The notes under the pieces are model-generated. The model was not told the DNA's origin, did no database searches, and saw nothing but the letters and a program-made list of their open reading frames with translations. DNA of 4,281 bases from a virus (lineage: Duplodnaviria > Heunggongvirae > Uroviricota > Caudoviricetes), in the IMG/VR virus record IMGVR_UViG_3300029190_000076; one strand, 5' to 3'. A program made the translations under genes and the position numbers. Positions 1 to 4,281 of the stretch are shown in pieces (within the stretch, counting starts at the first letter, position 1; each line of letters starts with the position of its first letter).

Positions 1-334
1 GAAAGGCTGGGCCATACTCCTCCGGCAGAAGCAGAAAAAGCTTATTATGCTTCCATCGGAAACGATGATCTGGCAGCCTGAGTTCACAGATAAAACACTC
101 TCCAGGAAACCCGGGGCGGTTCACTACGACTTGGGAAGACGCTTCATACCAAAGTCTATAAAGTTTTTCTTCTTCGTTTGGGTTATTAGGCTCACCACGT
201 TTTAATTTTTCAGTATATAAAATTGTTGAATAAATCGCAGGAGTTAATCCAGTGATTGCCCTCTGCCGCAGATCGGATTTGTTTGTTATCCACCCCAACA
301 GACGATCTCCCATCCATGTGATAATTGTATCCAT
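1..334 (-). CDS. Hypothetical protein, partial: first 111 codons in window, ORF continues past the left edge with no stop seen
   Basis: Hand translation of minus strand from ATG at 334-332: MDTIITWMGDRLLGWITNKSDLRQRAITGLTPAIYSTILYTEKLKRGEPNNPNEEEKLYRLWYEASSQVVVNRPGFPGECFICELRLPDHRFRWKHNKLFLLLPEEYGPAF, open down to position 2. In-frame TAA at 340-338 just upstream of the ATG. AAGGG Shine-Dalgarno-like motif at 346-342, 7 nt before the ATG. Absent from the supplied ORF track, presumably because it has no stop inside the window. No family recognised from memory. Confidence 0.55.
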   Translation of the reverse strand, partial: MDTIITWMGDRLLGWITNKSDLRQRAITGLTPAIYSTILYTEKLKRGEPNNPNEEEKLYRLWYEASSQVVVNRPGFPGECFICELRLPDHRFRWKHNKLFLLLPEEYGPAF

Positions 335-795
335 GCTTTAGCCCTTCTTAGTAAATAGTGTGTAGGGCGACTGAAGGACCGAGTTTATGCTTTTTCGCAT
401 TGCTTTCAGTTAGTACACCGGTATCGCACCGGAAACAATCCTACGGCAAATTGGTTGTCTGACCTCTCGGTTTTTCGTGCATTAACCGATACCCACTACA
501 GTCTCGGCGAAAGCTGCACACCCCCAGGGTGTACTGGTAGCACTCGGCACAGCCTAGCACGCCACTTTCTTCTCACTATCCAGTCTAATTTTATCCCCTA
601 GTCAGACACTCAGATGTAGTGCTCCGCAGCGGCATGCGGGGGAATACAAAAACTCGGACAAAATTGGGCCCTCCTTTTTGAATCACTCGCGGGGATGTAG
701 TTATTAATACATGGAAAAAGATCTGTTTTCAAATCCAACATTATATGGTTTCAATACCACGGGGTGGCTATGTGTTTCTCATTGTTAATTGGAAT
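335..795 (-). other. 461-bp ORF-free spacer between two same-strand ORFs; candidate structured non-coding RNA or long 5' leader, function unknown
   Basis: After the TAG at 798-796 all three minus-strand frames hit stops within 15 codons, and stops recur throughout. The supplied track has no ORF on either strand between 335 and 763. Inverted repeats read directly on the + strand: 412-419 agtacacc with 528-535 ggtgtact (8 bp, about 108 nt apart); 378-383 accgag with 466-471 ctcggt; 370-375 actgaa with 405-410 ttcagt, enclosing 387-390 atgc with 397-400 gcat; local hairpin 518-523 acaccc with 527-532 gggtgt (3-nt loop). GC is visibly higher than in the adjacent recombinase gene. Confidence 0.3.
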
Positions 796-1119
796 CTACT
801 GTAATCGATCCGAACGTAAATGCGGCAAAACTCGACTCCACTTATCATCCTGCCACGGCCGGAATTTTACATGTGCCGTTTCTCTGGCAAGGATTGCCTG
901 TGCCTTATTGAGTATCTGGGGATATTCTTGCTCGATAGAAGTGAAGCGACCAGCTTCACGATGCTCCGCAACCTGAAGAAGAGGAGTAACGTTCTGGTAG
1001 GTAATTAACATCACATTCCCTGCTCGCCATAACCAGGCGAGTGTGCAAAGTTCGTTATCAGTGAATTGTTTTGTGATTGGGTATTGTTGAACTGCTAGAA
1101 CGAGAACGCCAGCATCCAT
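796..1119 (-). CDS. Hypothetical 107-aa protein (orphan ORF immediately downstream of the recombinase gene)
   Basis: ORF from the supplied track: MDAGVLVLAVQQYPITKQFTDNELCTLAWLWRAGNVMLITYQNVTPLLQVAEHREAGRFTSIEQEYPQILNKAQAILARETAHVKFRPWQDDKWSRVLPHLRSDRLQ. Bounded by an in-frame TAG three codons upstream of the ATG at 1119-1117, so it is not a frameshifted tail of a longer gene. Composition is protein-like, not low-complexity. Weaknesses: only a weak GAGA-type SD upstream, no recognised motif, and it overlaps spurious + strand ORFs. Confidence 0.4.
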   Translation of the reverse strand: MDAGVLVLAVQQYPITKQFTDNELCTLAWLWRAGNVMLITYQNVTPLLQVAEHREAGRFTSIEQEYPQILNKAQAILARETAHVKFRPWQDDKWSRVLPHLRSDRLQ

Positions 1120-1230
1120 TGGCAGTCTCTATAGTAAAACCATAGCTCAGGACGCTTCGTTCAGGATAGATAATTTTATTGTACTTACCTAACTTTCTTA
1201 CTATAGCACGGTTGAAAAAGTGATTATTAC

Positions 1231-2757
1231 TCAAAAATAAACCTCACCATCAACCATATATTTGAGAGTACTTATCGCCTGCTGGGCGGATATTGTTTTC
1301 ATTAAAGGATAGTGTTTAAAAACAATGCCATTCATAAAATAGATATCACAGGTTTTATTATCTGTATTGATTATGATTTTTTCGAATGTTTTATAGGCAA
1401 GTGTACGACATAGCTCTCGCCCATTTTTACTGGTTAAGTCAATAGCATGAAAATCACCAAGTGAACTCACCGCTTTACTCTTCAAAGTTTTTAATGATAC
1501 AGAAGCCCTTCGTAATTCCTTATCTAATACTCTGATTTTTTCTGCTATAGCGGTAACTTCAGGCGCAACAGATAATGCAGCAATTAAATTATTAATTTTC
1601 ATCTGGAGCTCAATAATTTTCAACTCTAAAGTTTCATTAGCATCTTTCTTGTTTTCAACTGGTTGGATTTTACTACAATTAAAAAGCAACTCATTAATGA
1701 TATTATAATCAACCAAATCTCTCTTTATTGATGGCCTGTCACATCGATGCAGTCTTCTCATCGGACAAACATAATAGCCATGCAAACTTCCAGATACCGC
1801 ATGAACAATCATGGTATTACCACAAGCCTCGCACTTCATAACTGTTCGAAGTAGATTTATCAACATAGGATTTTTGCTACTATTGCTAATACCAAAAGGT
1901 GCCAACCGAATTTCCTGTACAGCGTAAAACAAATCATCTGATATGACTCTGGGATAATAGCCAGCGATTTCACTTATTCCTTTACCTCTTGCACGATATG
2001 AAGGTACGCATATACCTATCAGAGCTTTATTCGCTAATAATTTTTCAATTACAGAAGGTCCCCATGCACTTTCTTTTCCTGAGAAATTCTTTACAGCATG
2101 ATCATTTAAATACTTGGCTATTGCATTCAATGAGCGCCTTTCCATCCTGAGTTTAAAAATTAGCTCAATAGTTTTCACCCTGTCGGGGTCTGGAACAAAA
2201 GCCGTTCTTTTGTCATCTAAGGAGAGCCATCTCGGACAAGACGCCGTCATAATCGTACCTGATTCCAGTGCATCCTGCCGTTTTTTCTTCCATGATAATT
2301 TAACCCGACTTGACTTTATCTCGCTTTCTTCATTTGCCCTTTGTGCTATAAGTATGGCTTTTATTAATGAATATGGCTCATTCAAAGAGTCAATATTATA
2401 GACTGTATTGTCGCAAAGAGTTATAACATCAATACCGTGATTCAAAATCAATTTCAGACGTTCAATCGCTTCACCGACTTTTTCTCTTGAAAGTCTGTCC
2501 AGACTTTCAACTAACAATGTAGTTCCTGGCAATATATAACCATGCTCTATAGCATCTAAAAATTCCGAAAAAGCTCCTGATTGTGCATGCTTTCCTTTGA
2601 ATGCACTTAATCCTAAATCTTCATATGTTATGGTATCAAGATAATAATCACTATTTACCTTTAACCATTCAGCAATAAGTCTTCTCTGTCGGTTTAATGA
2701 GTCGCCAGACATCTGACCTGGTGATGAAAATCGCATATATGCTATGGCTTTTTTCAT
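1231..2757 (-). CDS. ybcK: Large serine recombinase (resolvase/invertase-type catalytic domain + recombinase domain + zinc ribbon + coiled coil), 508 aa; YbcK-like
   Basis: N-terminus MKKAIAYMRFSSPGQ carries the Y-x-R-x-S catalytic motif, with Ser11 as predicted nucleophile. DSLNRQ and LLVESLDRLSR motifs are typical of the serine-recombinase catalytic domain. A Cys4 zinc-ribbon pattern follows (CEAC ... YYVC ... HRC), then a predicted C-terminal coiled coil (ETLELKIIELQMKINNLIAALS...). AGGTG SD at 2767-2763, 5 nt before the ATG at 2757-2755. Length 508 aa and position just downstream of emrE match my recollection of ybcK in the E. coli K-12 DLP12 prophage. Very AT-rich, about 30% GC on a hand-counted sample line. 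Confidence 0.9.
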   Translation of the reverse strand: MKKAIAYMRFSSPGQMSGDSLNRQRRLIAEWLKVNSDYYLDTITYEDLGLSAFKGKHAQSGAFSEFLDAIEHGYILPGTTLLVESLDRLSREKVGEAIERLKLILNHGIDVITLCDNTVYNIDSLNEPYSLIKAILIAQRANEESEIKSSRVKLSWKKKRQDALESGTIMTASCPRWLSLDDKRTAFVPDPDRVKTIELIFKLRMERRSLNAIAKYLNDHAVKNFSGKESAWGPSVIEKLLANKALIGICVPSYRARGKGISEIAGYYPRVISDDLFYAVQEIRLAPFGISNSSKNPMLINLLRTVMKCEACGNTMIVHAVSGSLHGYYVCPMRRLHRCDRPSIKRDLVDYNIINELLFNCSKIQPVENKKDANETLELKIIELQMKINNLIAALSVAPEVTAIAEKIRVLDKELRRASVSLKTLKSKAVSSLGDFHAIDLTSKNGRELCRTLAYKTFEKIIINTDNKTCDIYFMNGIVFKHYPLMKTISAQQAISTLKYMVDGEVYF

Positions 2758-2940
2758 GGTGACACCTGCTAACGTATGCTTTTATAAACCTTAGTGGTGG
2801 GATATAATTTTTGTTTAATTTTTATTTAAAAAGACAATTAAGGTCACATTATCTTGAATATACAACAATAATCGTATTGCAATTTTCTTACGCCATAATC
2901 TTGAAAGCACAAAAGAATACATAAAAAAATAAAGACATTA
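2758..2940 (-). promoter_or_regulatory. AT-rich spacer upstream of the recombinase gene containing its RBS and presumably its promoter; exact -35/-10 not assigned
   Basis: Extremely AT-rich (for example 2801-2860 atataatttttgtttaatttttatttaaaaagacaattaaggtcacattatcttgaatat). Lies between the emrE terminator and the recombinase start. Several TATAAT-like hexamers are present, but none could be singled out by eye. Confidence 0.3.
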
Positions 2941-2982
2941 ACAAAAAGCATAAAACGAGGCTCATATAAATATAAGAGCCTC
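2941..2982 (-). terminator. Putative rho-independent terminator downstream of emrE
   Basis: On the minus strand, about 31 nt after the emrE stop: 7-bp stem GAGGCTC/GAGCCTC (+ strand 2957-2963 and 2976-2982) with a 12-nt loop, followed by the U-rich run GUUUUAUGCUUUUUGU (reverse complement of + 2941-2956). The loop is larger than ideal, hence moderate confidence. Confidence 0.45.
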
Positions 2983-3013
2983 CATATTTTAGTCGTTTAG
3001 AAACAAATTATTT

Positions 3014-3346
3014 TTAATGTGGTGTGCTTCGTGACAATAAATTAATAACCAACACACCGGCACAAATCAACATCATGCCTATAATGGCTGGCAGGTCCAG
3101 CCGTTGGCCGAAAAGTCCCCATGACAGTAAGCTAATCAGGACAATACCGACTCCTGACCAGATAGCATAAGCAATCCCTGTAGGAATATAAGCCAGCGTC
3201 TGAGCTAATAACCAGAATGATGCACAATAACAAATAATTGTACCAACAGATGGCCATAACCGTGTAAAACCTTCTGAAAACTTCATTAAGGTTGTACCAA
3301 TGACCTCTGCAAGTATTGCACCACCAAGATAAATATAAGGGTTCAT
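3014..3346 (-). CDS. emrE: SMR-family multidrug efflux transporter EmrE (110 aa)
   Basis: Product MNPYIYLGGAILAEVIGTTLMKFSEGFTRLWPSVGTIICYCASFWLLAQTLAYIPTGIAYAIWSGVGIVLISLLSWGLFGQRLDLPAIIGMMLICAGVLVINLLSRSTPH matches E. coli EmrE nearly residue-for-residue from memory. The membrane-embedded Glu14 essential for proton/drug coupling is present, with four hydrophobic segments. Start placed at ATG 3346-3344 rather than the track's 3400: this gives the canonical 110-aa length and has AGGAAAG at 3361-3355 upstream. Stop TAA at 3016-3014. Confidence 0.95.
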   Translation of the reverse strand: MNPYIYLGGAILAEVIGTTLMKFSEGFTRLWPSVGTIICYCASFWLLAQTLAYIPTGIAYAIWSGVGIVLISLLSWGLFGQRLDLPAIIGMMLICAGVLVINLLSRSTPH

Positions 3347-3361
3347 AGAATATTCTTTCCT

Positions 3362-3396
3362 GTTCAAACTGGAGAGAATTGTACTACAGTTTGAAC
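3362..3396. repeat. Perfect 10-bp inverted repeat (gttcaaactg / cagtttgaac) with 15-bp spacer, between ren stop and emrE RBS
   Basis: Read directly: + strand 3362-3371 gttcaaactg is the exact reverse complement of 3387-3396 cagtttgaac. The 15-nt spacer is gagagaattgtacta. The arm at 3362 abuts the emrE SD at 3361. No U-tract follows on the minus strand, so it is not a canonical intrinsic terminator. Confidence 0.6.
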
Positions 3397-3413
3397 TCAA
3401 CTCACCTGTTTCA

Positions 3414-3716
3414 TCATTGTGTACCCATTGATGTTCTTTTATATACCCTCAATACCCGTTTCATCGCGGCACTCTGGCGACACTCCTTAAAAATCAGATT
3501 CGTGCTCACCTTTCCTTCCCGTTCTTCTCTGGTAGCAAACCGGTAATACACCGTTCGCCAGACCTTACCTTCGATAGCCAGAAGACCTGCCCGTGCCATT
3601 TTAGCCGCAGCCTGATTTATGCTGGTTACCGTTGCGCCTGTTACCGCGGCAACGTCCTGCGCACAGAATTTCTTATGAGTCCCCAGGTAATGAATAATTG
3701 CCTCTTTGCCCGTCAT
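3414..3716 (-). CDS. ren: Lambda Ren-like protein (100 aa)
   Basis: Product MTGKEAIIHYLGTHKKFCAQDVAAVTGATVTSINQAAAKMARAGLLAIEGKVWRTVYYRFATREEREGKVSTNLIFKECRQSAAMKRVLRVYKRTSMGTQ resembles lambda Ren from memory. The start ATG at 3716-3714 overlaps the stop TGA of the upstream P-like gene at 3715-3713 (ATGA), as I recall for the P/ren junction in lambda. Confidence 0.8.
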   Translation of the reverse strand: MTGKEAIIHYLGTHKKFCAQDVAAVTGATVTSINQAAAKMARAGLLAIEGKVWRTVYYRFATREEREGKVSTNLIFKECRQSAAMKRVLRVYKRTSMGTQ

Positions 3717-4281
3717 ACCCTTGCTCCTTTCAGCCCAAACTTAGCTTTGATTTCTGCGATCTTCGCCAGAGCCTGTGCACGATTTAGAGGTCTACCGCCC
3801 ATGACAGGAAGTTGTTTTACTGGTTCAGGTATAGCCTCACCACGGTTAATTCGTGCGGTCATACAGGACAGTTCATCGGCAGCCTTGCGCCGTAATTCCG
3901 CGTCAGTCAACGCATTGGCCCGCATGTTCTGATACAGGTTGGTAACCAGCCAGTAGTGCGCGTTTGATTTCCACGGATAAGACTCTGCATCCGGATACAG
4001 CCCGCGCTTCCGGCAATACTCGTAAACCATATCAACCAGCTCGCTGGCGTTTGGCAGCCCGGCGGTAACGGATGCTTCTTCCCGGCACCAGGCGACAAAC
4101 TGCCCGGGTGATGGCAGGAATGGTCGATTCTGCCGACGGGCTACGCGCATTCCAGCGTTAACCTGTTCCATTGTGGTGATCCCGTTTTCCCGAAAAGCCA
4201 GCACCCACTGGCGGCGGATTTCGTTCAGTTCATTCTGGTCACGGTTAGCCAGGCTCGCCGGGAAAGTTGCCAGTAACTGGC
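3713..4281 (-). CDS. P: Lambda-type replication protein P (DnaB helicase loader), C-terminal portion; 5' end lies beyond the right window edge
   Basis: Track ORF 3713..4204 begins at an internal GTG. Hand translation of 4205-4279 stays open in the same frame (QLLATFPASLANRDQNELNEIRRQW, then VLAFRENGITTMEQVNAGMRVARRQNRPFLPSPGQFVAWCREE...KAKFGLKGARV), so the gene continues upstream of the window. Sequence matches lambda P closely from memory. GC is about 53% on a hand-counted sample line. Confidence 0.85.
   Translation of the reverse strand, partial: QLLATFPASLANRDQNELNEIRRQWVLAFRENGITTMEQVNAGMRVARRQNRPFLPSPGQFVAWCREEASVTAGLPNASELVDMVYEYCRKRGLYPDAESYPWKSNAHYWLVTNLYQNMRANALTDAELRRKAADELSCMTARINRGEAIPEPVKQLPVMGGRPLNRAQALAKIAEIKAKFGLKGARV

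Follow-up and report, generated by a model that had tools for sequence, protein, structure and literature searches.

A swapped-in cargo allele with a probable pseudoknotted RNA beside ybcK in a DLP12-like prophage of Escherichia coli

The virus record IMGVR_UViG_3300029190_000076 supplied a stretch of 4,281 nt (the window, by which the whole stretch is meant), which matched the chromosome of Escherichia coli WP5-S18-ESBL-08 at 100% identity (NZ_AP022161.1, positions 3739050-3743330), within a DLP12-like lambdoid prophage adjoining intD in which every window gene is on the minus strand. We concluded with good confidence that the part of the window beyond ybcK is a swapped-in cargo allele, which carries a remnant of a Rha-type gene, a structured RNA of 331 nt and a gene for a 118-aa protein that was cut by an insertion sequence (IS).

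Considering all the comparisons below, we explain the origin of this arrangement as follows. Window positions 1-1191 are one allele of a hypervariable cargo position; in lambdoid prophages of the DLP12 type, this position comes after the replication/ren genes and before ninB (ybcN). Recombination among related phages exchanged the ybcL-ybcM module of the K-12 type for a module of 1.2 kb, consisting of a decayed Rha/antirepressor gene of which a C-terminal open reading frame (ORF) is left, the 331-nt minus-strand RNA, and the gene of the 118-aa four-helix protein. Later, in this strain, an IS629-like element inserted at codon 70 of that gene. Both the replacement of the module and the subsequent cut of the ORF by the IS are shown directly by the comparisons. 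Compared loci are cited by number: L001, the source genome; L002, FDAARGOS_497; L004, phage Turner (PP925837); L005, Klebsiella phage Kp4856-1; L079, Escherichia sp. ESNIH1; L082, E. coli E67; and L113, an Obesumbacterium proteus prophage.

The cargo position after ybcK

In K-12 MG1655, the gene order is ybcK, ybcL, ybcM, ylcH and ybcN, as the original prediction, made from the letters of the window, had stated for the first three of these genes. It had also claimed that the content after ybcK differs from that of K-12, and blastn bore this out: only window positions 1192-4024 aligned to the K-12 locus, positions 1-1191 had no K-12 counterpart, and no collinear, near-identical match of 1-1230 to K-12 570429-572367 was found. 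Homology to K-12 stops 41 bp past the ybcK stop codon and returns about 85 bp upstream of ylcH, the latter in FDAARGOS_497 (L002), which has the same arrangement without the IS. Between these points K-12 has 1,813 bp with ybcL and ybcM, whereas the window-type arrangement has an unrelated 1,218 bp, which in this strain is further split by the IS. The remainder resembles DLP12 of K-12 at 96-97% identity, with P, ren, emrE, ylcJ and ybcK upstream and ylcH, ybcN, ninE, ybcO, rusA, ylcG and Q downstream. No PEBP or AraC-type helix-turn-helix Pfam domain was present in either ORF downstream of ybcK; Pfam gave P22_AR_C for one and no family at E<=0.1 for the 118-aa ORF, and neither ORF is ybcL or ybcM.

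The states of this slot were counted with diagnostic junction queries in 5,426 complete E. coli genomes, a place being accepted when it covered >=80% of the query. The interval from ybcK to ylcH/ybcN had at least five alternative contents: the K-12-type ybcL-ybcM (674 genomes), an empty state of the O157:H7 type in which ybcK is directly followed by a ylcH-like ORF (307 genomes), an alpha/beta hydrolase gene on the opposite strand (174 genomes), the rha remnant followed by a gene for a 309-aa BstA (106 genomes), and the window arrangement (92 genomes, 3 of them with the IS). Since the rha remnant adjoins ybcK in 346 genomes overall, further slot states exist; in 148 genomes the remnant is accompanied by neither BstA nor the RNA module. 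In E. coli E67, the BstA gene (L082:2355-3284; PADLOC E=3.6e-121) is allelic to window 1-795 and is preceded by the same rha remnant. BstA is a prophage-encoded abortive-infection protein (PMC8585504). The location usually described for it is beside the repressor gene of the prophage and outside the nin region.

The first component of the window allele is a 107-aa ORF (796..1119, minus strand) with a P22AR_C domain. Its sole Pfam match was P22_AR_C (PF10548, E=1.1e-15, residues 15-85), it shared 82% identity with Rha of phage PhiR5_1 (249 aa) over residues 152-249 of the latter, and its PHROG matches fell on the C-terminal ends of Ant profiles that are 213-319 positions long. The N-terminal DNA-binding/regulatory domain of Rha/Ant, with which such proteins reach a full length of about 210-320 aa, is not present in this ORF. 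Judged by these matches, the ORF is the tail of a formerly longer rha-type gene: it shares the P22AR C-terminal domain with the Rha and P22 antirepressor proteins, and because the N-terminal two thirds is missing, we class it as a remnant, short of a complete protein of this family. Upstream of it follow a segment without K-12 homology (1120..1191, minus strand), which ends at the left mosaic junction 1191/1192, then the ybcK 3' flank that blastn found common to K-12 (1192..1230, minus strand), and ybcK itself (1231..2757, minus strand), which encodes an intact large serine recombinase of 508 aa by annotation and by its Pfam domains Resolvase, Recombinase and Zn_ribbon_recom and delimits the slot on its upstream side. 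A shorter fragment of the rha remnant, corresponding to window 948-1188 at 80% identity, stands beside ybcK in phages of the Lambda_4C10/4A7 type with the alpha/beta hydrolase allele. The compared alleles suggest nested replacements from a common ancestor that carried a rha fragment.

A candidate structured RNA on the minus strand

The original prediction had noted a non-coding stretch of 461 bp between the two ORFs. This gap is real (335-795), and no coding sequence (CDS) is annotated in it in any E. coli genome record; it is not empty, as it holds the 331-nt RNA element, which nhmmer placed at window 696-366 (366..696, minus strand) and for which 17 helices were modelled. A search for distant DNA homologues showed window 368-722 to be 78% identical to two Klebsiella phages whose flanks are unrelated, and homologues of the element were then collected from several sources. 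The element occurred in 159 of the 5,426 E. coli genomes and was annotated in none of them; it also occurred in two E. coli and two Klebsiella phages, in about 70 IMG/VR viral contigs, in 29 metagenome loci, in the species-representative genomes of Enterobacter pasteurii and Escherichia sp. ESNIH1, and in Obesumbacterium proteus, and it had no plasmid match. Across the 39 distinct sequences of the alignment, whose identity to the window was 71-100%, the length stayed at 329-331 nt. Conserved blocks alternate with variable patches.

Evidence for a fold came from covariation. With 24 sequences, RNAalifold predicted 84 pairs, 17 of which had compensatory double changes, and the plus strand folded far worse. 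Long-range helices beyond the nested prediction were revealed by a scan of all column pairs. One of them is a kissing-loop helix of six pairs between two hairpin loops (window 621-616 with 499-494; RNA positions 114-119 and 236-241), for which the lineages have the pair sets CACTAC/GTAGTG, CACCAC/GTGGTG, CGCAAC/GTTGCG and CATCAC/GTGATG. A second helix of eight pairs (window 607-600 with 464-457; RNA positions 128-135 and 271-278) crosses the kissing helix and is therefore a pseudoknot. The complete fold model, pseudoknots included, has 87 pairs in 17 helices and was scored on the 39 distinct sequences against control models slid by 1-3 columns. Standard pairing was found in 97.4% of the cells, compared with 35-43% in the slid controls; 22 pairs had changed on both sides (1-8 in the controls), 217 cells had double-sided changes (at most 31), and the covariation score was 0.233 (at most 0.06). 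None of 500 shuffles attained the values observed for the model. Pairs of G with U made up 11.5% of the cells, and the model was 97% canonical on the minus strand vs 86% on the plus strand, a difference which points to the minus strand as the transcribed one.

Searches of Rfam 15 at E<=1 gave no family for the RNA element, whether the window or five divergent homologues were used; in the homologue loci, all Rfam matches lay outside the element. These were to the prophage small RNAs STnc100 and isrJ (L005:156-351, minus; L007:2253-2329, minus; L046:3314-3392, plus; L113:7437-7512, plus), so the Rfam library covers RNAs of enterobacterial prophages, yet it does not contain the 331-nt RNA. No tRNA or tmRNA was found in the element, no tRNA genes adjoin it, and it has no direct or tandem repeats.

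Promoter-like hexamers precede the element (703..732, minus strand), namely TTGAAA (732-727) and TATTAAT (709-703), the second being non-canonical and of the form T(T/A)(A/T)AAT. Both are conserved across the lineages, while the spacer between them is free in sequence and constant in length (one base longer in the lineage of the window); in alignment A3 the columns T3, G5, T28, A31 and T32 were invariant and the spacer was divergent. Conserved hexamers separated by a spacer of constant length and free sequence are the usual signature of a promoter. Transcription would run leftward from this putative promoter, with a start near window 696. In most lineages an intrinsic terminator lies 5-10 nt past the last helix, with a G+C-rich stem of 7-11 bp followed by seven or eight U; the terminator scan missed the hairpin and U-tract of a Klebsiella phage, which folding confirmed. 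In most phage lineages the RNA would end at this terminator of its own, as a free-standing transcript of about 350 nt. A terminator is missing from the lineages with the 118-aa gene, that of the window among them, and their ORF starts 30-36 nt past the RNA. In the window this spacer is 31 nt long (335..365, minus strand) and contains a purine-rich Shine-Dalgarno-like run, AAGAAGGG. Because the terminator is missing, the transcript of the window's lineage probably continues into the 118-aa ORF.

Possible role of the RNA and alternative explanations

Several points weigh against a free-standing folded RNA that is new to the literature. The single-sequence folding energy was unremarkable (z = -1.26) and not significant on either strand, the aligned sequences represent only about eight lineages, and most helices were derived from the same alignment that was used for counting. 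This circularity was only partly mitigated by a held-out copy, the most divergent one (L079, from Escherichia sp. ESNIH1), which is 66% identical to the window and spans 342 nt in its own locus: 73 of 86 pairs were kept, 11 double changes relative to the window were present, and two of these were new double changes in the pseudoknot (GUCCGGCU/GGCCGGAC). Transcription, the ends of the RNA and the promoter were all inferred from sequence, and a simple sigma-70 consensus scan of the window did not call the hexamers. In several lineages the downstream ORF is so near the terminator that it may depend on read-through, which fits a role in cis. Finally, no description of an RNA at this locus, or of the ybcK/ybcL variation, was found in open-access text, and an earlier description is possible.

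The role in cis deserves the closest attention, as the RNA could be a riboswitch- or attenuator-like leader whose fold gates passage through the terminator or translation of the ORF, and which thereby controls a potentially toxic cargo together with the nin and Q genes. Most lineages have the order expected for such a leader (promoter-like element, RNA, terminator, ORF), the distance of about 20-45 nt from terminator to start codon leaves scant room for a separate promoter, a gene on the same strand always comes next, and in the window's lineage the ORF begins 31 nt past the RNA. However, the genes downstream of the RNA belong to at least five unrelated families, or there is no gene before ninB, as in lineage L046, which has no cargo ORF between the RNA and the ninB-like gene. 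These families are the 118-aa family; a protein of 176-183 aa with an Rx4H motif, HEPN-like by eye; a protein of 178 aa whose two termini bear hydrophobic segments and which looks membrane-like by eye; a 177-aa protein; and a 95-aa protein. The terminator stems (CCGCC/CCACC) also showed no covariation with the 3' tail of the RNA (GUCGCC/GUCGAC), and no antiterminator pairing was found. Riboswitch aptamers are usually about 50-250 nt long, a size that 331 nt exceeds, and the class of gene downstream of a riboswitch is expected to be consistent, which was not the case here. We therefore regard a leader in cis as the main alternative, though an unlikely one. The 176-183-aa protein, which was seen in Klebsiella phage Kp4856-1 (L005:3394-3945, minus strand) and also at L068 and L007, belongs to PHROG 27260 (unknown function) and carries the motif as RLRHNLLH; it had no Pfam or PADLOC match.

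One subgroup of the RNA occurs with different downstream proteins, one protein occurs with different RNA subgroups, and a homologue of the 118-aa protein with 51% identity has no RNA upstream. Since RNA and protein pairings are shuffled in this way and a relative of the 118-aa protein does without the RNA, the RNA appears to be an independent module with no cognate partner among the neighbouring proteins. The constant length, the many invariant unpaired bases and the knotted fold suggest a defined shape in three dimensions, with which the RNA would bind something. Provided that the RNA is real, we lean slightly toward an action in trans, in which the folded RNA would bind some ligand, such as a protein, in the lysogenic state or early in the lytic cycle; trans is preferred over cis because the downstream genes are unrelated or absent and no alternative pairing of RNA and terminator was found. 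A role in conflict between phages or between phage and host is a reasonable guess by analogy, because the slot elsewhere carries BstA.

For the exchange of the cargo itself, an integron- or cassette-like mechanism could be imagined, in which the YbcK serine recombinase exchanges cargo at sites beside its own gene; in all variants, the variable content indeed starts about 40-220 bp from the ybcK stop codon. This is very improbable, as the junctions vary (breakpoints at window 1192, 1165 and 1013), no att-type direct or inverted repeats flank the cargo (three pairs of 14-15 nt only, at chance level), and the module of RNA and small ORF occupies the same position just upstream of ninB in Klebsiella and other phages without ybcK. 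For these reasons the slot has no tie to the recombinase. Of the proposed variable cargo slot next to the recombinase, the variability is supported by the contents counted above, and the link to YbcK is not supported. In phage PhiR5_1 the ren-to-ninB segment contains different genes. As the compared genomes present it, the variable region is the lambdoid ren-to-ninB mosaic, in which emrE-ybcK is itself cargo, and the slot is ordinary prophage mosaicism. A promoter-like element, TTGATT-17-CATAAT (L002:7821-7849, minus strand; also L005:3369-3397), is found just past window position 1 when the IS is taken out. It belongs to a conserved stretch that directly precedes ylcH/ybcN, is common to E. 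coli and Klebsiella phages, and might serve the nin genes as a cargo-independent promoter. In the Obesumbacterium proteus prophage, about 840 bp from the replication gene P to the RNA (L113:2796-3637) contain no called gene.

Another possibility is that the 461-bp stretch is decaying junk, either a pseudogene remnant or intergenic DNA left by recombination, with no function. Its position in a mosaic region, with a gene remnant on one side and an IS-disrupted gene on the other, would suit this, as would the ordinary folding energy and the absence of an annotation in every genome record. We consider this very improbable, because the element has been kept at 100% down to 66% identity across phages of Escherichia, Klebsiella, Enterobacter and Obesumbacterium with unrelated flanks, its length is fixed in the complete aligned copies, and its paired positions co-vary with retention of pairing.

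Equally remote is the view that the stretch encodes small proteins. The record of phage Turner has two "hypothetical protein" CDSs inside the element (L004:5468-5587 and 5637-5768), the lineages conserve, ahead of a 19-codon ORF, the strong Shine-Dalgarno-like motif AAGGAGG with a TTG after it, and antisense stretches of about 70 codons without a stop are found in some lineages. Against this, the synonymous share of codon changes across the element was 15-20% in each of the six frames, without any synonymous excess, the open stretches vary by lineage, and indels of one base disrupt the 19-codon ORF in two lineages and displace the other frames. Given the absence of a coding pattern and the ORF-breaking indels, the two Turner CDSs are very likely spurious as judged from the alignment.

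A further point concerns the open frame that runs from 334 to 1 and reaches the window edge. Window 1-123 (plus strand) is the right end of an IS629-like element of the IS3 family, 1310 bp in total, with the 3' end of the transposase ORF (to 81) and a terminal inverted repeat ending ...GGGGCGGTTCA; it matches the ends of IS3/IS629 transposases in thousands of E. coli records, and an element with the annotation IS629 family matches window 1-124 at 100% identity. The IS of the source genome (L001:6814-8123, 1310 bp) has the inverted ends TGAACCGCCCCGGG.../...CCCGGGGCGGTTCA, a transposase annotated with a programmed frameshift, and a duplicated CTA, one 3-bp copy of which is at window 124..126. 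The uninterrupted allele reads AAAGTCTACGACTT, and the interrupted allele reads AAAGTCTA, then the IS, then CTACGACTT. All traits of IS629 (about 1.3 kb, inverted repeats, a two-part frameshifted transposase, a 3-bp duplication) are found in this element, and nothing about it is unusual. Because positions 1-123 belong to the IS, "ORF 1-334" is a chimera, of which 124..334 (minus strand) are the first 70 codons of the 118-aa gene (WP_000379700.1 family), truncated after codon 70.

The 118-aa gene is intact in 89 genomes and in phage Turner. Its product belongs to a small family found in Enterobacterales and to PHROG 12412, a group of unknown function. AlphaFold predicts a generic bundle of four helices (pLDDT, predicted local distance difference test, 80) without a significant fold match in the PDB (best E = 0.4); a few HEPN toxins at E ~1 were discounted. 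PADLOC found BstA only, in the alternative E67 allele, and had no match for the 118-aa protein of the window allele or for YbcK. The original prediction had left room for ORF 1-334 as the N-terminal domain of a longer regulator continuing past the window, and although the frame is open to the window edge, this reading is wrong, since an IS3-family end lies leftward of 123 and the uninterrupted gene encodes a stand-alone protein of 118 aa only, with no DNA-binding domain match.

Regarding the other genes of the window, the minus-strand order is P (partial), a ren-like 100-aa ORF, emrE, a frameshifted ylcJ, ybcK, the 107-aa ORF, the gap and the open frame from 334 to the edge. The 100-aa ORF at the ren position (3414-3716, minus strand) is "hypothetical" in the source genome and "protein ren" in relatives; ren of K-12 is split by IS3. 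The gene ylcJ, between emrE and ybcK (2815-2965, minus strand), is annotated as frameshifted here, and K-12 ylcJ is an intact 49-aa ORF.

Relation to known systems and significance

In type III toxin-antitoxin systems such as ToxIN, the antitoxin RNA consists of tandem repeats and is paired with a cognate conserved toxin. AbiF/RCd22 is a system with an operon of RNA, terminator and toxin (bioRxiv 10.1101/2025.04.15.648962). The order of promoter, structured RNA, intrinsic terminator and small protein gene in most relatives of the window allele resembles both ToxIN and AbiF/RCd22. In contrast to them, the 331-nt RNA is free of tandem repeats, and its downstream protein comes from one of at least five families, if there is one at all.

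GOLLD and ROOL are large ornate non-coding RNAs that are often found in prophages, ROOL being about 580 nt long (PMC5737381). Like them, the 331-nt RNA has a complex fold with pseudoknots, is borne by temperate phages and has no known function, and it would likewise be free-standing. Unlike them, it is smaller, has no adjoining tRNA genes and does not match either Rfam family in sequence or structure; its nameable hosts, moreover, are all Enterobacterales, the IMG/VR and metagenome contigs carrying no host label. Large bacterial RNAs with complex folds are rare and have often proved to be ribozymes or otherwise unusual in function (PMC5737381). We regard the 331-nt RNA as a new family among the orphan large structured RNAs of temperate phages. 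More tentatively, and with somewhat less than even confidence, it may represent an undescribed class of large pseudoknotted non-coding RNA of temperate lambdoid phages of Enterobacterales, which would have a biochemical job of its own and not be a simple leader; it could, for example, be the RNA component of a system for conflict between phage and host or between phages, sequester a protein, or act as a ribozyme.

Lambdoid phages have known hot spots for moron and defence genes, such as the cI-N region with rexAB or bstA (PMC8585504). The slot described here has in common with them a fixed map position, a content that varies among close relatives, and the inclusion of an abortive-infection gene. 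It differs in that it lies in the early-right operon, from ren to ninB, and not beside the repressor. The ren-to-ninB position of DLP12-type prophages thus cycles through at least five contents, the BstA gene among them. The 331-nt RNA is presently unannotated, or mis-annotated as two tiny proteins. Furthermore, it occurs in E. coli and Klebsiella phages that can be grown and engineered, such as Turner and sequenced lysogens of clinical strains, and its function is therefore directly testable.

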